A stretch of DNA of 64,000 bases from Candidatus Chazhemtobacterium aquaticus (GCF_009936135.1 NZ_CP047901.1:60181-124180); one strand, 5' to 3'; shown: positions 28,879 to 62,667, numbered from the stretch's first letter. Made by a program: numbers and translations. The notes: a model not told the origin generated them from the letters alone.

Positions 28879-29134
28879 TGCGGGCGGAAGGTCGGTATCT
28901 TGAGAGGCTCAAATGGGCCCTTTTGTGAGTAATCGCAATCGAAAACCTGGCTATATCGGTGAAACCCACGAAATAAGTGGGCAACCCCGAGGGAAGTCGT
29001 AATTGACCCCGTAGAGACTACACGCCGGGCTCCCCAATAAATAAGGGATGATGATATAGTCCGACACTCCAAGCAATTGGAGATAACCGTGCATAATCTC
29101 TCTTAACCGGGGTTCAACTCCCCGGGCCCGCAAC
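28879..29134 (+). ncRNA. ssrA: probable tmRNA (ssrA); structured RNA with tRNA-like 3' domain
   Basis: 3' end CCGGGG-TTCAACT-CCCCGG-GCCCGCA-A-CCA resembles the tmRNA T-arm, acceptor strand and encoded CCA (E. coli ssrA ends GGGTTCAACTCCC...CCACCA). 5' TGCGGGC at 28879-28885 pairs perfectly with GCCCGCA. Local G+C is higher than the surrounding intergenic DNA. No full tRNA cloverleaf is present. No G3-U70 pair or tag frame could be verified. Confidence 0.4.
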
Positions 29135-29143
29135 CAAAATCAT

Positions 29144-40713: not shown

Positions 40714-43299
40714 ATGGCTTCAAAATCTCGATCAAAAAAAACTACCCCTCCCTCTCCGACACCAAAAACCAAGCAATCTCGAAAGATAAAGTTGTCTCAT
40801 TTTCTTTCCCTATCACGCCTCCGGCTTCCTCATCCTCAACTCCATCTCCCCCACCTCCAGCGTAAACACATAATAATCATCAGTATTCTGATAGCTACCT
40901 TACTCTTCACAATTGGCTTTATCCTCTTTAAAGATGTCCCCAATCCCACTTCTCTATCCAAACGTCCTGCTCCCGTATCAACTCAAATTCTTGATCGCCA
41001 TGGCCAACTTCTCTACGAGATTTACACCGACCAAAACCGTACTCCAGTCTCCATCAAAGACTTACCCGATCATCTCACCCAAGCTACCATCTCCATCGAA
41101 GACAAAAACTTCTACTCCCACCATGGCCTGGACTTAAGAGGCATTGCCCGAGCCGCTTTCAAAACCCTCACTGGCCAGCGTCTCGAAGGCGGATCCACCA
41201 TCACTCAACAATTGGTCAAAACTGCTCTGCTTAATGATCCGTCCCGCACCATCTCACGTAAAATCAAAGAGGCAGCTCTTGCCATTCTCACCGAAATTAT
41301 CTACTCCAAAGACCAAATTCTAGAGATGTACCTCAACAACGTACCCTACGGTGGCACTGCTTACGGCATCGAAACAGCAGCCCGTCAATACTTCAATAAA
41401 TCAGCCAAAGACCTCACTCTTGCAGAAGCCACCCTACTTGCCGGACTTCCCCAAGCCCCCACCCGTTACTCGCCCTTTGGTGCTCACCCCGAACTAGCCA
41501 AACAACGCCAAGAACAAGTCCTTCGCCGTCTCCACGAAGATGGATATATCACCTCAGAAGAACTCGAGACTGCCAAGAATGAATCACTAAATTATGCCAG
41601 CGTTAAATCAACCATCAAAGCTCCCCACTTCGTCCTTTGGATCAAAGACCTTCTCGTCGACCGCTACGGCGAAGATTTAGTCAACCTTGGTGGACTTAGA
41701 GTTACCACTACCCTAGACCTTAATCTGCAAGAATACGCCCAAGCCTCCCTATCAGCCGAAGTTGACAAGTTAGAACGTCTCAAGGTCGGTAATGGAGCCG
41801 CCCTAGTCACCAAGCCAAAAACCGGAGAAGTGCTTGCTATGATCGGCTCAAGAGACTACTTCGACAAAGAACATGACGGAGCTGTCAATATCACCCTCCG
41901 TTACCGCCAACCAGGATCCTCAATCAAACCCCTCAATTACGCCGTCGGACTCCTTAAGGGTTGGCCAACCTCCACCATGTATCTTGATATACCCACTTGT
42001 TTCACTCAGTCTGGCCAAAAAGCATATTGCCCAAAAAACTATGACAACACCTGGCACGGGCCGACCCAAATGCGCTTCGCTCTTGGTAACTCCTACAACA
42101 TCCCTGCAGTTAAACAACTTGCCCTCAACGGTCTTGACGCTATGATCGCCACTGCCTCAGCCATGGGCATCACTGGCTGGGACAATCCCGATCGCTTTGG
42201 TCTCTCACTCACTCTAGGCGGTGGAGAAGTCCGCATGATTGACATGGCAGTCGCCTTCGGCGTCTTCGCCAACTCGGGCGTCAAAGTACCCCTTAATCCA
42301 ATTCTAAAAGTTGAAACATATACCGGACAAGTTCTTGAAGAAACCAATCTTGAAACCATCGCCGACCTCGCCTCAACCTCGCCCCTCAACTGGGATGATT
42401 TCTGGAGCAAACCACGCTCATCCAACAACCCAACCACTCAAACCACCTCCGTTGATCTGGGAATTGCCTCACCCTATTCCAGTTTCTTTGATCGCTTACT
42501 TGGCAAAAAACCCGGCAACCAAACTCTTAACATCACCATTCCCGAAACTCAGGTTACCACCGTCCTCCCTGAAGAAGTAGCCTACATCATCTCCCATATC
42601 CTCCTCGACAACAATGCCAGGGTTGGCGCCTTTGGATCAAGCAGCGAGCTCGTCATTCCTGGACATACTGTCTCCGTCAAAACCGGAACCACCAACGATC
42701 TACGTGACAACTGGACCATTGGCTTTACTCCCGACTATCTCGTCACCACCTGGGTCGGCAACAACGATAACACCTCCATGAGCTACGTTGCCTCAGGTGT
42801 TACCGGCGCCTCGCCCATCTGGAACGATATCATGCGTTTTGTCCTAAAAGACGAAAAAGACCGCTTTCCCACTCGCCCCCAAGGTATCGCCGATGCCCAA
42901 GTCTGTACCCTAACTGGTCTGCTTGCCTCTCCCGACGCCCCTTGTGACACCCGAAACGAAATCTTCATTAAAGATCACCTCCCTCTCCCCTCCACCACTT
43001 TACCCACTCGCAAGCAAATCTGGATCAGGCGGGACACCAACCAACCCCTTCTTCCAGGCGAAGAGGTTATTGACCTCAATCTTGAAGAACACACCGTTGT
43101 CTCAGACCCCTTCACTCAAGAATTCTGCCTTGACTGCGCCTATCCCCAAGAAACCAAGCCCAACCCTGACAATCCCGATGAACAAATTCCCACGGGCAAA
43201 ATCTCCTACCCCACCTTCATCATCAACTACGATCTCTTCAAAGCTAAAAACATCACTCCCACCTCCTGGATCAATACCACTCAACCACCCATAAACTAA
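40714..43299 (+). CDS. class A penicillin-binding protein (bifunctional transglycosylase/transpeptidase)
   Basis: GT51 motifs EDKNFYSHHG and GGSTITQQLVK. Transpeptidase motifs SSIK, SYN and KTGTTND. N-terminal TM anchor. Confidence 0.9.
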   Translation: MASKSRSKKTTPPSPTPKTKQSRKIKLSHFLSLSRLRLPHPQLHLPHLQRKHIIIISILIATLLFTIGFILFKDVPNPTSLSKRPAPVSTQILDRHGQLLYEIYTDQNRTPVSIKDLPDHLTQATISIEDKNFYSHHGLDLRGIARAAFKTLTGQRLEGGSTITQQLVKTALLNDPSRTISRKIKEAALAILTEIIYSKDQILEMYLNNVPYGGTAYGIETAARQYFNKSAKDLTLAEATLLAGLPQAPTRYSPFGAHPELAKQRQEQVLRRLHEDGYITSEELETAKNESLNYASVKSTIKAPHFVLWIKDLLVDRYGEDLVNLGGLRVTTTLDLNLQEYAQASLSAEVDKLERLKVGNGAALVTKPKTGEVLAMIGSRDYFDKEHDGAVNITLRYRQPGSSIKPLNYAVGLLKGWPTSTMYLDIPTCFTQSGQKAYCPKNYDNTWHGPTQMRFALGNSYNIPAVKQLALNGLDAMIATASAMGITGWDNPDRFGLSLTLGGGEVRMIDMAVAFGVFANSGVKVPLNPILKVETYTGQVLEETNLETIADLASTSPLNWDDFWSKPRSSNNPTTQTTSVDLGIASPYSSFFDRLLGKKPGNQTLNITIPETQVTTVLPEEVAYIISHILLDNNARVGAFGSSSELVIPGHTVSVKTGTTNDLRDNWTIGFTPDYLVTTWVGNNDNTSMSYVASGVTGASPIWNDIMRFVLKDEKDRFPTRPQGIADAQVCTLTGLLASPDAPCDTRNEIFIKDHLPLPSTTLPTRKQIWIRRDTNQPLLPGEEVIDLNLEEHTVVSDPFTQEFCLDCAYPQETKPNPDNPDEQIPTGKISYPTFIINYDLFKAKNITPTSWINTTQPPIN

Positions 43300-43642: not shown

Positions 43643-44935
43643 ATGGAAATCACTCCCCCATCACCATCTCCAAAACCTTCTCGTGTTCATATTGGCCCTA
43701 TCATCCTTGTCATTCTCTCTCTCACAGCCTTCATTCTTGCCGGTATCATCTATCTAACTCGCTCCACTCCTCCACCCCTTCTCTCACCACTAGCCCAAAT
43801 TGCTAATCCAGTCGCCGATATATTAGGAATTAACCCAAAACATCCAGAAAAAATCATCTACGGCTTTCTACCTTTCTGGAACATGAATGAATCCGACAAT
43901 TTCAACTATCACCTACTCACCCATGTCGCCTATTTTGGTCTAGACTACAACCCAGACGGAACTATCCACAAAATCAGTGATGACAACACCCTTGAACCAG
44001 GTTGGAATCAACTCAACTCAAGCCAAGCCAATCAGGTTTTCCGTTCAACCAAATCCGCCCGAGGTAAGACTATCATTGTCATGCGAGCCATGACCCAAAA
44101 ACTAATTGAGTCACTTGTCAATAATCCCGATCACCGCCAACAGGTCATCGACTCAACCATGGAGATTCTTGATCAAAAAAACTTTGACGGGATCAATATT
44201 GATTTCGAATATGTTGGCACTCCAGACACTCAAACTAAAAATAACTTTTCTCTTCTTGTAAAACAATTAAGCTCTGTCTGCAAACAAACGCGTCCTGGCT
44301 GTGAAGTTAGTATAGATGTTTTCGCAGACTCAGCCGTTAAAAACCGAATTTGGGATTACGCCAGCATCACTCCTCACATTGACTACGTTATTATTATGGC
44401 CTACGACTTCTTCCGCTCATCCTCATCCCAAGCCGGACCCGTCGCCCCATTAAGAGGGGCATGCTCAGAATCATCATCAGACCAATCGACTTGTCTCGAA
44501 TATGACGTAGCCCAAACTATCGCCGACTTTTCCAAAATAATCCCTGCTGAAAAAATTATTCTTGGAGTTCCTTACTACGGCTATCAATGGCAAACCACCA
44601 CGTCTGAGTTCTTAAGCAACACCTATCAAAAAACCGGTGCCACAGCCACTTATAAACGCATCCAGGAACTCCTAACATCATCAAACCAAGAAGACAGATC
44701 AGCTATTCTCGGCCTCTCAACTCACTGGAACGACACCACCCTTACTCCTTGGATTACCTACACCGACACTGAAGGCAATATCCAACAAATCCACTACGAA
44801 GACGAACATTCCCTTTCTCTAAAATATGATCTGGTCAACCAAAGCAATATTGCCGGAATCGCTATCTGGGCTCTTGGATATGATGGACACTGGCCACAAC
44901 TATGGCAGCTTCTTCAACACAAATTTCTCAAATAA
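43643..44935 (+). CDS. glycoside hydrolase family 18 domain protein (chitinase/peptidoglycan hydrolase-like), membrane-anchored
   Basis: GH18 catalytic motif FDGINIDFEY (DxxDxDxE). N-terminal TM helix. Confidence 0.8.
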   Translation: MEITPPSPSPKPSRVHIGPIILVILSLTAFILAGIIYLTRSTPPPLLSPLAQIANPVADILGINPKHPEKIIYGFLPFWNMNESDNFNYHLLTHVAYFGLDYNPDGTIHKISDDNTLEPGWNQLNSSQANQVFRSTKSARGKTIIVMRAMTQKLIESLVNNPDHRQQVIDSTMEILDQKNFDGINIDFEYVGTPDTQTKNNFSLLVKQLSSVCKQTRPGCEVSIDVFADSAVKNRIWDYASITPHIDYVIIMAYDFFRSSSSQAGPVAPLRGACSESSSDQSTCLEYDVAQTIADFSKIIPAEKIILGVPYYGYQWQTTTSEFLSNTYQKTGATATYKRIQELLTSSNQEDRSAILGLSTHWNDTTLTPWITYTDTEGNIQQIHYEDEHSLSLKYDLVNQSNIAGIAIWALGYDGHWPQLWQLLQHKFLK

Positions 44936-45017: not shown

Positions 45018-47603
45018 ATGCGCCACACCGGACAGGGGTCATTGATAAACAGATCTCTATACCAACTCACCCATAAAATCACAAAATACTTTAATACCCT
45101 AAATCATCTATCAAACAAGCAACACAAAAATAAGCTGCCAATCAATCACAATCCTATAAATCGAGTCACTCAATTCCTCAAATATCTTGGTCGTCCTGTT
45201 TTCAACATTCTTCTCCTCCTCATCCTCTTCTCCAACTTTACAATCACCCAAACTCTCAACTTACTTGGTTTAATCGGTCGTGCCACCCTCAACCTCCCTC
45301 CTGCAATTTTAAACCTCTTTAAACACGTAAGCTTACCCCGTCTTTCCAAACCATCTATACCAAAGATTGGTCTTCCACACCTGCCTAATCTGAAGCTTCA
45401 TTTTTCTCAAAAAACTCATCACCCCATCCAATTCTCAATTCCTCAATTACCCCATTTACAACCACCCCACTTTCCCAAACTCCCTTCGCCTCGCATAAAA
45501 CTACGCCCATCTCTCCTCAATCTCTCCGTCCTCACGCTTATTTTCATCTCCACCTTTCTTTATTACTGGATTCTTAAAGATCTACCCTCGCCACGAAAAC
45601 TTTCAAATCTACAGCCGGAACTAACTACCCAAATCTTTGATCGACACGGTCGACTTCTTTACAAGATATATGACCAAGAAAAACGCACTCTAGTCTCTCT
45701 GGAAGATATCCCCCTCCATACTCGCCAAGCCACCATCGCTATTGAAGACAAGCACTTCTACTCTCATCAAGGCCTTTCGCTAAAAGGCATAATCCGTGCC
45801 ATTCAAAGAAACCTTACTACTCAAGAGATCCAGGGCGGTTCCACCATCACCCAACAACTCATTAAAAATACCTTACTTACAAACGAAAAAACCCTACAAC
45901 GCAAAATCAAAGAAGTTATTCTTGCTATTCACACCGAACTGATCTTCAGTAAAGACCAGATTCTCCAGATGTACTTCAACCAAGTTGGCTACGGTGGCCC
46001 AGCATATGGGATTCAGGAAGCCGCTCAACAATACTTTGCCAAAAATGTCTCAGATCTAAATCTAGCCGAGTCAGCCCTACTTGCTGGCCTACCGCAATCA
46101 CCCACTCGCTACTCACCTTTTGGTGCCCACCCAGAACTCGCCAAGCAACGTCAAATCCAAGTACTAGATCGCATGCTTGAAGATGAGTATATTACCCTTC
46201 AACAATATCAAGACGCGCTTAATACCCCCCTTACTTTCGCCCCACCCCAAACCAGTATTCTTGCTCCTCATTTCGTCATGTATATCAAAGACCTCCTCGT
46301 CTCATACTTCGGCGAAGAACTTGTCACCCACGGAGGTCTCCAAGTCCACACCACTCTAGACCTAGATATCCAAAACCTTGCCCAATCCATCCTCAATCAA
46401 GAGCTTGATCAACTTAAAAATCTCCATGTCAACAACGGAGCCGTACTTATCACCAACCCTCCTTCCGGCGAAATCCTAGCTATGATTGGATCAAAAGACT
46501 ACTTTGATATTGCTCACGATGGTCAGGTAAACCTAACTACCAGTCTTCGCCAACCAGGCTCAGCCATTAAGCCTATCAACTATGCTCTTGCTTTTGAAAC
46601 CGGACTGACTCCCTCAACCATTATCCACGACACTCCCATAACCTTTAATCTCCCCGGATCCAAACCCTACACTCCCAACAACTATGACGGACGTTTCCAC
46701 GGAGCCGTTACGCTCAGAACCGCTCTTGCCTCATCATATAATGTTCCAGCCATCAAGCTCCTAAATAGAAACGGGGTTATCCAAATGGCCAGATTAGCAT
46801 CACAAATGGGTATCACCACCTGGGACAACCCTGCTCGCTACGGCCTTTCTCTTACCCTGGGAAGTAATGAGGTCAAAATGACCGACATGGCTGAAGTCTA
46901 CGGTACCTTCGCCAATTTAGGTGTTCACGTACCCCTTAATCCCATCCTCTCCATCAAAGACTCCTCCGGTCAACCTCTTAAATTCAATCTCTGCAACCTA
47001 CCCCAAACCGATACCAATCAATCCACCTTCACTGTTCAAGCTGCCACTACAAATACCAACTGCCAACCACATCAAGTCATCTCACCAGAAACCGCTTATT
47101 TAATCTCCGACATACTCTCTGACAACCAAGCCAGAACTCCTGCATTTGGCTCTCGTTCAGTTCTCCACATCCCTGATTACCAAGTCGCCGTTAAAACCGG
47201 TACTAGCAATGATCTGCGTGACAACTGGACCATTGGCTATACACCTGAACTCCTAGTTGCTACCTGGGTTGGCAACAACGATAACTCACCCATGAGTCGC
47301 ATTGCTTCAGGCATCACCGGAGCCTCACCCATCTGGAGTCAAATTACCTCACAAATCCTTAAAAACACCGTTCCAACTACCTTCCCCACCCCATCCAACA
47401 TTGTCAAGGTTCCCATTTGCACTCTCACCAACACTCTTACCTGTTCTGCTTGCCCCTCAACTAGGTTAGAAACCTTCATCCAAGGCACCCAGCCCACTAT
47501 TTCCTGTACCACCGAACAAATCAACCAAGCTCTTGAAAAGAACACATCCTCACCTTTAGCCCAATCTTCTTTAGATCAAAACGATAACGCCTCCTCAGAT
47601 TAA
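45018..47603 (+). CDS. class A penicillin-binding protein paralog with long Pro/Leu-rich N-terminal extension
   Basis: EDKHFYSHQG, GGSTITQQLIK, SAIK, SYN and KTGTSND. The RYSPFGAHPELAKQRQ block is identical to the first PBP. True start uncertain. Confidence 0.85.
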   Translation: MRHTGQGSLINRSLYQLTHKITKYFNTLNHLSNKQHKNKLPINHNPINRVTQFLKYLGRPVFNILLLLILFSNFTITQTLNLLGLIGRATLNLPPAILNLFKHVSLPRLSKPSIPKIGLPHLPNLKLHFSQKTHHPIQFSIPQLPHLQPPHFPKLPSPRIKLRPSLLNLSVLTLIFISTFLYYWILKDLPSPRKLSNLQPELTTQIFDRHGRLLYKIYDQEKRTLVSLEDIPLHTRQATIAIEDKHFYSHQGLSLKGIIRAIQRNLTTQEIQGGSTITQQLIKNTLLTNEKTLQRKIKEVILAIHTELIFSKDQILQMYFNQVGYGGPAYGIQEAAQQYFAKNVSDLNLAESALLAGLPQSPTRYSPFGAHPELAKQRQIQVLDRMLEDEYITLQQYQDALNTPLTFAPPQTSILAPHFVMYIKDLLVSYFGEELVTHGGLQVHTTLDLDIQNLAQSILNQELDQLKNLHVNNGAVLITNPPSGEILAMIGSKDYFDIAHDGQVNLTTSLRQPGSAIKPINYALAFETGLTPSTIIHDTPITFNLPGSKPYTPNNYDGRFHGAVTLRTALASSYNVPAIKLLNRNGVIQMARLASQMGITTWDNPARYGLSLTLGSNEVKMTDMAEVYGTFANLGVHVPLNPILSIKDSSGQPLKFNLCNLPQTDTNQSTFTVQAATTNTNCQPHQVISPETAYLISDILSDNQARTPAFGSRSVLHIPDYQVAVKTGTSNDLRDNWTIGYTPELLVATWVGNNDNSPMSRIASGITGASPIWSQITSQILKNTVPTTFPTPSNIVKVPICTLTNTLTCSACPSTRLETFIQGTQPTISCTTEQINQALEKNTSSPLAQSSLDQNDNASSD

Positions 47604-58397: not shown

Positions 58398-58406
58398 TGT
58401 TATACT
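58398..58406 (+). promoter_or_regulatory. extended -10 promoter element (TGtTATACT) upstream of the DGR template repeat
   Basis: tgttatact lies 17 nt upstream of the first TR base. No clear -35 element. Confidence 0.3.
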
Positions 58407-58422
58407 CCTACTAGTTTTAGGC

Positions 58423-58557
58423 TTACGCCTTCCTACGGGGAGCCAATTGGAACAACGGATCCAATGCCGGTGTCTTCACCCTCAACCTGAACAATACGCC
58501 CGACAACTCTGGAAACAACAATATTGGCTTTCGTTGCGCCGTCTCCCCCTAAGTAAT
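58423..58557 (+). repeat. DGR template repeat (TR), 135 bp
   Basis: Matches the reverse complement of 60272-60406 at 127 of 135 positions. All 8 mismatches fall on TR adenines. TR carries AAC codons in the target reading frame. Confidence 0.9.
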
Positions 58558-58672
58558 CAAACCTGCGAGATCTCCAGATCATTGATCCACCCATCAATCA
58601 CTGGAGCCGGGCACCATCCAATTACCAGCCTAAGACTCGTCATCCACTTTAAGGAGACAGAGATAGTAAAAG

Positions 58673-58709
58673 AGTAACCAGTCTCGGGATTAATCAACGG
58701 TTACTCTTT
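58673..58709 (+). promoter_or_regulatory. perfect 9-bp hairpin in the TR-RT spacer (DGR RNA structural element candidate)
   Basis: agagtaacc - 19-nt loop - ggttactct, between the TR 3' end and the RT start codon. Confidence 0.4.
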
Positions 58710-58721
58710 TACACTTCTATC

Positions 58722-59855
58722 ATGTTTGACCGCATCATCTCTTTTAACAACCTGCTTTCCGCCTATTACAAAGCCAGAAGACACAAACGTTTCCAAAAAC
58801 CTCTCCAAATCTTCGAGTTTAATCTCGAAAAAAACCTCATCAACCTCCAAACCAATCTCGCCACCAATCAATACCGCCCCAGAAAATACCACCGCTTCAT
58901 CACCTTTGAACCCAAAAAACGTCAGATCTCAGCCCCTGTTTTTATCGACCGCATCCTCCATCACGCCATCATCACCGTTATTGAACCCATCTTTGAAAAC
59001 GTTTTCATTAACCACTCCTTCGCCTGCCGCAAGGGTAAGGGCACCCACTTTGGTATGCTCCAAGTCTCCCAAGTCTATCACCAGATCCGTCAGCATCACC
59101 CCCGCTTCTACTGCCTTAAATGCGACATCAAAAGCTATTTCGCCAGTATTAATCATCAGATTCTTCTCCGCCTGCTATCAAAACACATCTCCTGCCCCAA
59201 AACCATCAAATTACTCACCACTATCATCACCAGCTACCACGACACACCCGGCTGTGGCATCCCCATCGGCAATCTTACCTCGCAGCTATTCGCCAATATC
59301 TACCTCCACCCTCTCGACCTGTACTTAACCAAAACCCTTAAACTCAAAAACTACTTTCGTTACATGGATGACTTTCTTGTCATCTCTCCCGACAAAGAAT
59401 ATCTCCTTGCCCTCCGTCGTCAAATCAACACCTTTTTAACCACCAATCTCAAACTCACCCTCCACCCCAAGAAAAACAATATCTTTAGGGCTGATCGTGG
59501 CCTGGACTTCCTAGGCTATCTCATCAAACCCCATCAAACCACCATCAGAAAAAAGACCCTCCGCCGTTACAAAAAACGTCACAAAAAACGCCTCAAGAAA
59601 CTAAAAACCTTAAAACACCTCCTAAAAAACCACAACCAGCCCCAGCAACTCTCCCTCTTCGCTCCCCCACAAAATCTAACCGACCCGGATCTATCAAACC
59701 AAATTACCGCTCTCCAACAAAAACTTCGCTCCTCCCGTAATTCCTTCAAAGGCTTCCTCCGTTACTCCACCCACCAACGTCTATCTTCTGGTGGTGTAAC
59801 TATCAACAACATCACCATCCCCAACATCTTCCCCAAGAAACCCAACAAGCCCTAG
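58722..59855 (+). CDS. DGR-type reverse transcriptase
   Basis: RT motifs, including YMDD in FRYMDDFLVIS. DGR-specific IGxxxSQ motif (IPIGNLTSQLFANIYL) in place of the group II intron QG. 377 aa with no maturase or endonuclease domains. TR lies immediately upstream. Confidence 0.9.
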   Translation: MFDRIISFNNLLSAYYKARRHKRFQKPLQIFEFNLEKNLINLQTNLATNQYRPRKYHRFITFEPKKRQISAPVFIDRILHHAIITVIEPIFENVFINHSFACRKGKGTHFGMLQVSQVYHQIRQHHPRFYCLKCDIKSYFASINHQILLRLLSKHISCPKTIKLLTTIITSYHDTPGCGIPIGNLTSQLFANIYLHPLDLYLTKTLKLKNYFRYMDDFLVISPDKEYLLALRRQINTFLTTNLKLTLHPKKNNIFRADRGLDFLGYLIKPHQTTIRKKTLRRYKKRHKKRLKKLKTLKHLLKNHNQPQQLSLFAPPQNLTDPDLSNQITALQQKLRSSRNSFKGFLRYSTHQRLSSGGVTINNITIPNIFPKKPNKP

Positions 59856-60190
59856 AGCCTACTCACCCTCATCCACGCATTTAGCAATCTCCCAATCTCA
59901 TTTATTTTCTCCGCTACTACCCCGTATTTCTTAATCGACAAAAACCCTACATCCTTGGCTACTCTCACATATACCCGAAACAAATCAAGATTTACTGAAA
60001 TCTTCTTCTGTTCCGCTCTCCGATCAGGTTTACTGTTAGCAATAACCGTTAGTCTAATCATTTCCATATTAGTTTTTAGCAAAGCATTTGATAACAAAAA
60101 CCGTTGCGCTTTAGGAAACCTCGCCACCATCCGATGGGTATACAAGTACAGGTCATATATTTTCTGAAAGATTATCAGCTGATCAATCAT
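59852..60190 (-). CDS. avd: Avd-like accessory variability determinant (four-helix-bundle, TIGR02436-like)
   Basis: 112 aa from the internal Met, with GGGGGTGAG SD-like sequence 6 nt upstream. IYDLYLYTHRMVARFPKAQRF...L pattern is typical of Avd / 23S-IVS four-helix-bundle proteins. Directly downstream of the VR-bearing gene. Converges on the RT with a 4-nt overlap. Confidence 0.65.
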   Translation of the reverse strand: MIDQLIIFQKIYDLYLYTHRMVARFPKAQRFLLSNALLKTNMEMIRLTVIANSKPDRRAEQKKISVNLDLFRVYVRVAKDVGFLSIKKYGVVAEKINEIGRLLNAWMRVSRL

Positions 60191-60215
60191 ATTTTTCTCA
60201 CCCCCCCAAACCGAA

Positions 60216-60238
60216 GGCTCCGACTCAAGGTCGGAGCC
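60216..60238 (-). promoter_or_regulatory. perfect 9-bp hairpin (ggctccgac-tcaag-gtcggagcc) downstream of the VR; candidate DGR homing hairpin and/or transcript terminator
   Basis: Located 34 nt after the VR end, between the target stop and the avd start. No U-tract follows on the transcribed strand. Confidence 0.5.
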
Positions 60239-60271
60239 AGATAACAAGATTTTAAAAGATAGCTACGCCAA

Positions 60272-60406
60272 ATTACTTAGGGGGAGACGGCGCAACGAAA
60301 GCCAATATTGCTGCGCCCAGAGTTGCCGGGCGTATTGTTCAGGCTGAGGGTGAAGACACCGGCATTGGAACCGTTGTTCCAATTGGCCCCCCGTAGGAAG
60401 GCGTAA
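60272..60406 (-). repeat. DGR variable repeat (VR), 135 bp, at the 3' end of the target gene
   Basis: See TR. Encodes ...FLRGANWNNGSNAGVFTLSLNNTPGNSGRSNIGFRCAVSP*. Differences from TR give N->S, D->G, N->R and N->S, plus 3 silent changes. Confidence 0.9.
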
Positions 60407-62667
60407 TCAATATTACTCGACCCTCCCTGATAATATCTACCCACCCTCTTATTCAAATCCCAACTACTATCACTCGGTTTCAGTACGTCATAACTTAAAA
60501 CACCATAATCACTCACACTCGACCAATCAACCCAACTTGTACCCCCTCCCACCGGCTTATTAGGCCCCCTCACCACATCATCCGTCCATTCCCATACATT
60601 ACCCGCCAGGTCCCAGATCACCTCGCCATTAGATAAATAATGAGTTCGTCTTTGGGTGGCACCATTGCCACAGGTTGGATCAACATCTTTAGTGACCGTG
60701 CCATAGCAGCCTTGGGAATCGTCAGTCGAAGCTTGAAGCGCCAGAGCCGGGCCGTTATCATTATGACCCGCCACCAAATACTGACTTCCCGGACTATTAC
60801 CACACCCTGTCCCGTTTAAAGCACACCAGTTACTCCCCAACCTCTCCAGATTTCTCGCTATCGTCATCCACTCGTTATTAGTCACCAAATGCCACCCCTG
60901 CGTCTGGCAATAAGTCCTGGCATCTACCCCCGATCCGCCAGCATTCTGAGCAATTCTGGCAATCGGTGCCCCTTGAGGCGTTGACACTACATCTCCTCCC
61001 ATATCCTCTATACATCTACACCCCGACAAAATATTTCCCCACGTATCATAACCAGTGTTGCATGACGCATAAGCACCGCTTGCCGTATCCCCCACCCCGT
61101 CACCATCAGCATCACACTTAGCCTGATACTTCATCACACAAAAATCACTCGTTCCATATAGCGGATCACCTGGTACATGAACAAAACCACTAGGACACGC
61201 CACCTGAGCATTAGCAGGCTCTAAAGACTGTGTTTTACCAAACTTAACCGCCGCACCAATTACATCCACATACACCTCGAACAAAGTACGATCATAAGCA
61301 TAAATCAGCACATCATCCATCTTACCGTTAAAGTAATTAGGCGTCGCCCCTGCTCGACCAACAAACACCGACCCCCCCGTTACCGACCATAAAGACAAAG
61401 CCGGCGATGACACCAGTCGGCCGTCTACATAAAAACTGGCATTGACCCCATCATATGACACCGCCACATTAGTCCACTCTCCCGCCGATATACCAGCCCC
61501 GCTGCTCGTCACCACCGACCCTCCCACTGGCCCGAAGCTCAACTCCCCTCCGCTCGTCATCTGGAAGGTATAACCGTTCGTGTGAGGCTGCGACACAATC
61601 GCATAATTACCCAAGGAAGACACATAAACCCAAGCCGAGATCGTCATCGCCCCGCCTAACTGAAACCGTCCGTGATTACCCAGATCAACATAGTCATCAC
61701 TTCCGTCAAAAAGTAAGGCATAATTGTCATTACCCGCTACCCACTGGCTGTTATCACTCGGGAAATTCACCAATGCCGCTCTGGTATAGTTTTCCAGCCT
61801 GTTCATCGTCTGCAAACCAGAACCATCATCAAAACCTAATCTCACTACCGGCCTGCCTCTTTCCATCGCATAAGCCAACGACCCTTCATCTCTCGTCCCT
61901 GAGAATACTCTTACTTCATCAATCGAACCGTCCAGATAACCAGTATAACTGCCAGCCCCCGTTTTTGTTACACCTAAATAAAAATCAGCCGCCGTATCAC
62001 TCAGTGCCGTCCCCACCGACGAAACACTCCCTTCTCTAACCCCATTCACATACAAATATATGGTACCCGGACTGGTTGCGTTATAGTAACCCTGCAACAA
62101 GTACCAAACATTGGGCAGTATCTGCGTCGTTCCTGTTGCTGTCTTAATCGCCGCCGCTGTCCCGTCAGGCGACACCTGGAACTTGGGCCATACCCTGCCG
62201 TCTGCATCAGCCTGAATTATCAACCGATAACTCCTTATATCAAGCGTCTCATCCCACTTGGCCACCACCGTCTGAAACGCACTCTCAGATGCTGATACCG
62301 TATCAAACTTCACCCACGCCTCTACCGAAAAACTCCCTGTCTGGGAAAATACAGCCGTGTCCAGAGCTATCCCGTAATCATCAACACCATCAAACTCAGC
62401 TTTTCTCCCATATTTGGCTTCCGCCCCAATCCCCGTCTTCGTCCCCGTCACCCCACTCCCTGTCGTTGTCAACGTCAAGTCATTAACCCCCACCCGATCC
62501 TTAATCAAAGTCGTTCCATCCCCCTGAACGCTCTCAAAATCGTAATAAACCACCGGCTCGTCCCACACACTCCAATCAGCCCACACTACCCCCGCCCAGC
62601 CCAAAAACCACCAAAAAACCAGCAAACATCCCAACACCTTCCCGATCCTATTTTTCCCACATTCCAT
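60277..62667 (-). CDS. DGR target (variable) protein: signal peptide, two LamG/concanavalin-like domains, C-terminal FGE-sulfatase/C-type-lectin-fold domain carrying the VR
   Basis: N-terminal hydrophobic MECGKNRIGKVLGCLLVFWWFLGWAGVVWA. LamG-like blocks (FSVEAWVKFD..., MTISAWVYVS...). FGE hallmark GNVWEWT, ending in GFRCAVSP with the VR in the last 43 codons. Confidence 0.85.
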   Translation of the reverse strand: MECGKNRIGKVLGCLLVFWWFLGWAGVVWADWSVWDEPVVYYDFESVQGDGTTLIKDRVGVNDLTLTTTGSGVTGTKTGIGAEAKYGRKAEFDGVDDYGIALDTAVFSQTGSFSVEAWVKFDTVSASESAFQTVVAKWDETLDIRSYRLIIQADADGRVWPKFQVSPDGTAAAIKTATGTTQILPNVWYLLQGYYNATSPGTIYLYVNGVREGSVSSVGTALSDTAADFYLGVTKTGAGSYTGYLDGSIDEVRVFSGTRDEGSLAYAMERGRPVVRLGFDDGSGLQTMNRLENYTRAALVNFPSDNSQWVAGNDNYALLFDGSDDYVDLGNHGRFQLGGAMTISAWVYVSSLGNYAIVSQPHTNGYTFQMTSGGELSFGPVGGSVVTSSGAGISAGEWTNVAVSYDGVNASFYVDGRLVSSPALSLWSVTGGSVFVGRAGATPNYFNGKMDDVLIYAYDRTLFEVYVDVIGAAVKFGKTQSLEPANAQVACPSGFVHVPGDPLYGTSDFCVMKYQAKCDADGDGVGDTASGAYASCNTGYDTWGNILSGCRCIEDMGGDVVSTPQGAPIARIAQNAGGSGVDARTYCQTQGWHLVTNNEWMTIARNLERLGSNWCALNGTGCGNSPGSQYLVAGHNDNGPALALQASTDDSQGCYGTVTKDVDPTCGNGATQRRTHYLSNGEVIWDLAGNVWEWTDDVVRGPNKPVGGGTSWVDWSSVSDYGVLSYDVLKPSDSSWDLNKRVGRYYQGGSSNIDYAFLRGANWNNGSNAGVFTLSLNNTPGNSGRSNIGFRCAVSP

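Follow-up and report, generated by a model that had tools for sequence, protein, structure and literature searches.

The stretch of DNA analysed here, 64,000 nucleotides from Candidatus Chazhemtobacterium aquaticus (GCF_009936135.1, NZ_CP047901.1:60181-124180; hereafter the window), carries a compact locus at positions 58398 to 62667. A template repeat (TR), a structured spacer and a reverse transcriptase (RT) gene occupy the plus strand, and the minus strand encodes an avd gene and a large target protein whose gene ends in a variable repeat (VR) (Table 1). Together these parts form a complete diversity-generating retroelement (DGR) of ~4.3 kb in a Collierbacteria-like Microgenomates bacterium, which belongs to the candidate phyla radiation (CPR). 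To our knowledge, DGRs are the sole natural system of targeted protein hypermutation in prokaryotes, and CPR bacteria, whose cells live attached to other cells, carry them unusually often. A sequence-only reading of the window had proposed a DGR with convergent genes, and every part it listed was found in its proposed place, including the Avd-like gene, the spacer hairpin between TR and RT, and a perfect 9-bp hairpin beside the VR. A blastn-based self-scan for adenine-biased repeats found this TR/VR pair as the only one in the 64 kb. Among 27 loci fetched by RT homology, the self-BLAST scan detected a TR/VR pair with adenine-biased mismatches beside the RT homologue in 17, which validates the scan and also shows that this RT family is associated with such repeats. 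The scan found no pair in the loci L001, L002 and L034, although L002 and L034 nonetheless carry the VR-flank motif described below.

Table 1. Features of the DGR locus, in window coordinates
Feature	Position	Strand	Description
Possible -10 box of the TR-spacer-RT transcript	58401-58406	+	TATACT; read from sequence
Predicted stop duplex, 5' strand	58413-58423	+	11 bp; adjoins the 5' border of the TR; counterpart of the Bordetella avd:Sp (spacer) "cPRT stop"
Template repeat (TR)	58423-58557	+	135 nt; 35 adenines; 11 AAY codons in the VR frame
Structured spacer (Sp), TR to RT start	58558-58721	+	164 nt; four covarying helices
First spacer stem-loop	58564-58613	+	Helices 1 and 2; helix 2 covaries in 6/6 pairs
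AUUAC pentamer, predicted primer strand	58621-58625	+	Invariant in 9/9 clade spacers; pairs with GUAAU at 58553-58557
Predicted stop duplex, 3' strand	58627-58637	+	Begins 1 nt past AUUAC
Long stem-loop	58666-58712	+	14-bp perfect stem (58666-58679 / 58699-58712); 19-nt loop; ends 9 nt before the RT start codon
DGR reverse transcriptase	58722-59855	+	377 aa; Pfam RVT_1, E 4e-24
avd	59852-60190	-	112 aa from the ATG at 60190; convergent on RT
GC-rich hairpin	60216-60238	-	Perfect 9-bp stem; 5-nt CTTGA loop; 33 nt past the end of TR/VR homology
Conserved VR 3' flank	60239-60271	-	GTAGCTATC and further (T)ATC repeats ~8-10 nt apart; from an alignment of 8 clade VR flanks
Variable repeat (VR)	60272-60406	-	Target codons 754-796, stop codon and 5 nt past the stop
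Target gene	60277-62667	-	796 aa; hydrophobic N-terminus; two LamG domains; C-terminal FGE-sulfatase/C-type-lectin-fold domain with the VR

The TR and VR were returned by a repeat search as one long inverted repeat of 135 nt that is 94% complementary. When the TR is aligned with the reverse complement of the VR, all eight mismatches fall on TR adenines and none occurs elsewhere (positions 58441, 58459, 58485, 58503, 58513-58515 and 58518). The changes from TR to VR are A to G in six cases, A to T in one and A to C in one. Given 35 adenines in 135 positions, the chance that all eight would fall on A is ~1e-5. Three of the eight VR substitutions are silent third-position changes in glycine codons, which points to mutation irrespective of coding effect rather than to selection. 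The VR had been described as the last 135 bp of the target open reading frame (ORF). Its 3'-terminal location stands, but the repeat extends 5 nt beyond the stop codon (60277-60279). Identity between TR and VR runs through TAAGTAAT, beyond which the two sequences part. In the target frame, the variable codons comprise the 11 AAY codons and five others with A at position 1 or 2, and the remaining TR adenines inside the ORF are all at silent third positions. The possible protein variants number ~15^11 x 4^5, or ~9e15, and a stop codon is unreachable by adenine changes.

Related loci reveal transfer from TR to VR. L028, a JGI contig, is 90% identical to the window and is laid out identically. Its TR differs from the window TR at three positions that are not A, and the L028 VR carries all three of these alleles, which means that TR-to-VR copying has taken place since the two lineages split. 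Compared with its own TR, the L028 VR has 18 differences, 17 of them at adenines. An extra T in the L028 TR, located just 3' of the GC-rich run, is missing from the L028 VR, consistent with transfer that is bounded within the GC-rich segment.

Two sister elements, with RTs 60-61% identical to that of the window, were each assembled from two different samples, and the paired assemblies differ mainly in their VRs. L036 and L037 share 99.7% identity over 10.3 kb, and 17 of their 29 mismatches lie in the 125-nt VR, 16 of these 17 at TR adenines. In the other pair, L032 and L033, the 14 VR differences (12 at TR adenines) equal the total of 14 BLAST mismatches between the loci. Across the window, L028 and L030, the TR and spacer show 97% conservation, versus 90-95% identity for the loci overall, and the TR alone is 97-99% conserved in L028 and L030. 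A metagenome scan with the 3' half of the TR, in which adenines were made degenerate, retrieved two contigs only: L029, which is the same contig as L028, and L030, which contributes a TR only; the scan yielded no further VR alleles of the window element. The VRs of L038 and L039 were set aside. They belong to more diverged templates that are absent from the contigs, and nothing can be read from their numerous differences to the window TR at non-A positions.

Base composition provides a separate record of copying. The plus strand is poor in G relative to C, with a GC skew of ~-0.5 in every 2-kb bin of the window (1-64000). Third-position skew is ~+0.75 in minus-strand genes and ~-0.75 in plus-strand genes, so the bias tracks the DNA strand, not transcription. 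In the target gene, the VR is the sole part with C-rich third positions: the third codon positions of the VR (60272-60406) comprise G 6 and C 25, versus G 290 and C 83 in the remaining gene (60407-62667; Fisher p 9e-11). The VR therefore has the composition of the TR-bearing strand, a long-term footprint of one-way copying from TR to VR, and this footprint is visible because the G/C strand disparity of the lineage is extreme. The L028 alleles, the variation between samples in sister elements and the opposite-strand composition of the VR all point to mutagenic retrohoming, and judging from these sequence patterns, the DGR in the window is probably active.

We do not present the extreme skew as a discovery, because earlier work on the Microgenomates order UBA1400, Collierbacteria included, reported such a G/C disparity between strands (PMC7143001). 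The window skew of -0.5 is stronger than the ~-0.33 that we calculated for Ch65 from figures in that study. Loci of RT relatives with ~60% identity have ordinary skew near 0.1.

The RT is of the DGR type, as had been proposed. Its closest solved structure is Bordetella bRT (8ub7, E 2.6e-50), versus E 1.4e-20 for the top group II intron RT. DGR-clade RTs carry (I/L/V)GxxxSQ in place of QGxxxSP, along with YxDD, and the window RT has IGNLTSQ and YMDD. The longer segment IGNLTSQLFAN aligns to IGSLTSQLFAN of bRT, and equivalents of bRT residues F66, R74, I76 and D138 are kept. The closest homologues, full length and with ~60% identity, are found in Candidatus Levybacteria, Roizmanbacteria and Shapirobacteria. 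The third-position GC skew of the RT gene, -0.77, is fully matched to its strand, and the inverted arrangement is therefore old.

The Avd assignment exceeds curated cutoffs in both NCBIfam (DivGenRetAVD, an equivalog model, 89.8 bits against a cutoff of 80) and Pfam (bAvd, 75.6 bits against a cutoff of 40). A purine-rich sequence, GGGGGGGTGAG, is located upstream of the avd ATG. RT and avd converge, as the earlier parts list had it, and their 3' ends overlap by 4 nt (59852-59855). This overlap is identical in L028 and reaches 53 nt in L036, and a terminator has no space between the genes. Such an overlap could lead to antisense overlap of the two transcripts.

A reversed avd downstream of RT and converging on it is present in nine of the ten loci examined from the Microgenomates subclade of this element, in which the RT is at least 54% identical to that of the window. 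In the more distant CPR loci L008 and L024, avd is reversed and located between TR and RT, and several non-CPR loci have avd upstream on the same strand. In the survey by Wu et al. (2018), CPR DGRs as a rule have avd on the reverse strand, 90% of them have the order TR-(avd)-RT, and 48 DGR architecture variants are listed (PMC5758913). TR-RT-(avd) is a clade-conserved variant of this known CPR theme of reversed avd.

Within the RT clade, the LamG target gene occurs in either orientation relative to the conserved TR-RT/(avd) core (L031 4578-6911 and L036 7502-9898, compared with the window gene). Some genomes therefore have TR and VR inverted, and others have them in direct orientation at a distance of 4 kb. 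The DGR cassette also occupies differing chromosomal neighbourhoods among relatives. L001 (CAYRMT010000006.1), labelled as an uncultured Gammaproteobacteria sequence, has an RT 59% identical to that of the window and a spacer of the Microgenomates type. In this locus avd was not detected by tBLASTn, and the RT match ends at residue 279. L001 may be a CPR contig placed in the wrong bin, or a decayed copy.

The spacer between TR and RT is a structured RNA. We aligned the region between the 3' end of the TR and the start of RT in nine clade members (mean identity 47%), and four helices show compensatory changes in 22 of their 27 pairs. In these helices, 89% of cells are paired, versus at most 58% when the partners are slid, and 0 of 500 shuffles reach the observed score. 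The fold of the TR with the whole spacer has z = -4.45. The first stem-loop occupies the place of the Avd-binding stem-loop of Bordetella, and its position suggests that it may likewise bind Avd. The long stem-loop, in which helix 4 has compensatory changes in 8 of 11 pairs, is in the position of the Bordetella bRT-binding stem-loop and might have the same role.

Between the first and second spacer stem-loops lies the invariant AUUAC pentamer, whose pairing with GUAAU at the TR 3' end is the putative template:primer duplex. In some relatives this pairing grows, with lineage-specific sequence: L036 has 7 bp (-7.4 kcal/mol), and L032 has a longer duplex with interruptions (-6.5 kcal/mol). The primer duplex in Bordetella is Sp53-56:TR118-121, and 2 nt separate it from the stop duplex (bioRxiv 10.1101/2023.10.23.563531). 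The predicted stop duplex in the window has an RNAduplex energy of -16.3 kcal/mol, versus -7.5 +/- 2.2 for shuffles, and 0 of 300 shuffles are as good. L003, L031 and L032 have an equivalent duplex of different sequence at the TR border. Read from the TR towards RT, the order begins with a stem-loop and continues with the primer strand, the strand that forms a duplex with sequence 5' of the TR, a short stem-loop and, before RT, a long stem-loop. This order is identical in the cryo-EM structure of the Bordetella bRT-Avd-RNA complex, and similar predicted RNA elements have already been reported for CPR DGRs (bioRxiv 10.1101/2023.10.23.563531). By analogy, the predicted pairings amount to an RNA architecture suited to cis-primed reverse transcription. 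The hexamer TATACT is a possible -10 box for the TR-spacer-RT transcript. Hexamers resembling TATACT, TACACT or TATAAT are found at a similar distance 5' of the TR in relatives. A promoter scan left the window hexamer unflagged because a good -35 element is lacking.

As in DGR targets, the VR of the window is 3'-terminal and lies in a variation-tolerant fold, and the TR adenines fall mainly at codon positions 1 and 2 (AAY). The target matches Pfam Laminin_G_3 in two stretches (E 5e-44) and FGE-sulfatase at residues 582-793. Its hydrophobic N-terminus, MECGKNRIGKVLGCLLVFWWFLGWAGVVWA, was read by eye and probably serves as a signal peptide or an anchor. For residues 480-796, an AlphaFold2 model built from 52 homologues has a pLDDT (predicted local distance difference test) score of 92.3. 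The top match of this model among Protein Data Bank (PDB) structures searched with Foldseek is the Thermus aquaticus DGR variable protein TaqVP (5vf4, E 1e-8, probability 1.0), followed by formylglycine-generating enzymes (FGE) and Bordetella Mtd. The C-terminal module is common to ~1,500 proteins, in which it stands alone or is fused to LamG domains or to prepilin-type N-termini. The ligand of the target is plausibly on the surface of a host cell or a phage.

Three features occur solely beside the VR: a GC-rich repeat end free of A, a flank motif conserved in the clade, and the 9-bp hairpin. L032 and L039 have, at the equivalent position, a GC-rich hairpin of different sequence. The composite AGTAAT-N5-GTAGCTATC occurs once per locus in nine clade loci (L002, L003, L028/L029, L032/L033, L034, L035 and L038), and is at the VR 3' border wherever the VR was mapped. 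Specificity is found in the composite only, as GTAGCTATC alone is not enriched in the window (5 matches versus 6 expected). In L031 and L036 the flank adjoins the VR despite an inverted target gene and a VR 4 kb from avd, and it therefore belongs to the VR, not to an avd promoter. We infer that the flank and hairpin may be the equivalent of the initiation of mutagenic homing (IMH) site and cruciform of other DGRs, and they are a candidate target-recognition element. GC-rich inverted repeats downstream of the VR were found in only 34% of DGRs by Wu et al. (PMC5758913).

We have also considered a more ambitious reading of these elements, which we regard as doubtful. In it, this Microgenomates subclade would have a distinct form of target-site recognition, in which AGTAAT-N5-GTAGCTATC, the (T)ATC repeats (~8-10 nt apart, roughly one helical turn) and the GC hairpin would form a sequence-specific DNA element read by a protein, replacing the IMH/IMH* mismatch logic of Bordetella. 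This protein could be, for example, a host factor or the Avd pentamer. Antisense transcription across RT and avd, which converge and overlap at their 3' ends, would in addition couple the expression of the two genes. A further element of this reading is that the extreme strand bias of the genome, together with the inverted TR, provides a natural compositional tracer of one-way flow from TR to VR.

By analogy with the Bordetella phage DGR, a transcript containing the TR, the 164-nt spacer and the RT mRNA would begin just 5' of 58413. RT and pentameric Avd would bind the spacer stem-loops, and the spacer AUUAC would pair with GUAAU at the TR 3' end, priming cDNA synthesis in cis. Synthesis would run 3' to 5' along the TR, with random incorporation opposite adenines, and would halt at the predicted stop duplex. 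The cDNA would then replace the VR on the opposite strand. Its probable guides are the 3' end of the repeat, which is GC-rich and lacks A, along with the hairpin and the conserved GTAGCTATC/TATC flank.

We consider it very likely that the locus is a chromosomal DGR in a Collierbacteria-like Microgenomates host, and that it diversifies the ligand-binding tip of a single, probably exported protein with LamG domains and a C-type-lectin fold. Several observations weigh against this interpretation. Only 8 of 35 TR adenines (23%) are changed in the window VR, versus 49% in L028, so the last homing event may have been partial, old or filtered by selection. The 3' ends of TR and VR are identical over 39 nt, and donor and recipient differ in their flanks only, leaving no obvious IMH/IMH* distinction inside the repeat. 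The hairpin beside the VR also matches a loose terminator pattern, which makes its role ambiguous. AAC codons raise the count of third-position C in the VR, but after removal of the 11 AAY codons the bias is still ~G 6 to C 18. Avd has no significant relative among solved structures by sequence, and the priming and stop sites are putative assignments from predicted pairing.

The small fraction of substituted adenines could also mean that the locus is a decayed remnant, with recognisable parts, in which retrohoming has ceased and the TR/VR differences are relics. Exact-sequence look-ups, which found no other sample carrying an identical RT or FtsH, could be taken the same way. We judge decay improbable, however, because neither RT nor Avd is truncated, catalytic residues are retained, both proteins align end to end with homologues, and the TR and spacer have been conserved beyond the level of their surrounding loci. 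The non-A alleles shared by the TR and VR of L028 date transfer to after the lineage split, and in the sister elements differences between samples are almost confined to the VR. Moreover, if copying had stopped long ago, strand bias would have eroded the opposite-strand composition that the VR has kept. Another origin for the RT, from a group II intron, a retron or a defence RT (DRT), with the repeats an unrelated duplication of the 3' end of a gene, might be proposed from the NCBIfam results, in which the top-scoring model is the group II intron RT/maturase TIGR04416 (151 bits) and there are weaker matches to Drt3a (82), Drt2 (73) and retron St85 (62). These scores are far under the curated cutoffs of 300, 200, 390 and 235, respectively, and the matches include no model for DGR RTs, so that the NCBIfam ranking cannot assign the RT to the DGR clade. 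A non-DGR origin is scarcely credible given that bRT outranks group II RTs among solved structures, that no RNA of a group II intron or retron was found with Rfam in the window, that an avd gene is adjacent, and that plain duplication would not confine eight of eight differences to the adenines of one copy.

Many DGRs are phage-borne (PMC8144416, PMC5758913), and the differing neighbourhoods of the cassette among relatives indicate that it moves or is rearranged. The element might accordingly belong to a prophage or other mobile element and diversify a phage receptor-binding protein, as in Bordetella phage BPP-1. We find this very improbable. The genes flanking the DGR are of the housekeeping type (NifU, cysteine desulfurase, ferredoxin, ferredoxin reductase and DsbA), which places the element in the chromosome, and the third-position skew of RT fits the strand bias of the genome, arguing for long residence. 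The target has a hydrophobic N-terminal leader and LamG domains, not tail-fibre domains, and the CPR clade of DGRs is almost wholly cell-encoded (PMC8144416).

A chromosomal DGR of this kind shares much with that of BPP-1 (mtd-avd-TR-brt). Both have an RT with IGxxxSQ and YMDD, an Avd, and TR and VR of ~135 nt with adenine-only differences. In each, the VR is at the 3' end of a gene for a C-type-lectin-fold protein, the repeat end is GC-rich and A-free, and a hairpin follows the VR; the predicted spacer elements are in the order seen in the solved ribonucleoprotein (RNP). Unlike the phage-borne BPP-1 element, the window DGR is chromosomal, its TR and VR are mutually inverted, and its avd is on the opposite strand, downstream of RT. 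Because of this placement of avd, the upstream strand of the stop duplex is intergenic in the window, whereas in BPP-1 it is avd coding sequence. The window repeat also lacks an internal IMH/IMH* difference, its hairpin has a 5-nt loop and lies 33 nt beyond the end of homology, and its predicted primer motif ends in C, whereas Bordetella primes from A56.

The DGRs known from CPR bacteria (Patescibacteria), namely the "CPR set" and architecture B3 of Wu et al. (2018) and DGR clade 2 of Roux et al. (2021), share with the window a host lineage, cellular encoding, reversed avd and a single adjacent target (PMC5758913, PMC8144416). In the B3 arrangement, TR-(avd)-RT, avd lies between TR and RT, whereas in the window it is downstream of RT and convergent. 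Targets of CPR DGRs are usually without recognisable domains (Roux et al., PMC8144416), in contrast to the LamG and FGE-type domains of the window target. As for the VR-bearing domain, TaqVP (PDB 5VF4) is its best structural match, and the GNVWEWT and GFRCA motifs of the target align with those of an FGE paralogue. Compared with TaqVP and FGE-type proteins, however, identity is only ~14% and the TM-score 0.47, and the window target adds two N-terminal LamG domains and a leader.

Enrichment of DGRs in CPR bacteria is already documented (PMC8144416, PMC5758913), and a reference DGR survey holds the large "CPR set" (PMC5758913). The window element is a well-preserved case of this already common system, and it adds no new principle. 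Its contributions are modest: predicted RNA elements that map one-to-one on the Bordetella RNP, a conserved VR-flank motif, and a strand-composition footprint of one-way copying. The element is compact, at ~4.3 kb, its RT and Avd are intact, its single target is adjacent and has recognisable domains, and its predicted RNA resembles that of Bordetella. For these reasons it would be a reasonable choice for reconstituting a CPR DGR in a heterologous host.

The guess that the sequence comes from a reduced-genome bacterium is borne out by protein relationships, as the closest named relatives of RT and FtsH are from CPR/Microgenomates, and specifically from Collierbacteria. The closest named protein to the FtsH of the window is from Candidatus Collierbacteria (70%).

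Elsewhere in the window, a group I intron is present on the plus strand at 28900-29083 (Rfam RF00028, 79 bits). It is flanked by tRNA-like sequence (28880-29135), with a downstream T-arm and acceptor end, CCGGGGTTCAACTCCCCGGGCCCGCAACCA. ARAGORN calls no tRNA here, but the region is probably a tRNA gene split by the intron. Brute-force splicing with ARAGORN, used to define the exons, gave ambiguous results and did not settle the anticodon. A tRNA-Met gene is 230 nt from the intron, on the other strand. The window also encodes two paralogous class A penicillin-binding proteins of 861 aa each that are 50% identical (40714-43299 and 45018-47603, both on the plus strand). A GH18 glycosyl hydrolase gene (43643-44935) lies between them, and all three genes are on the plus strand, which is the minority coding strand.

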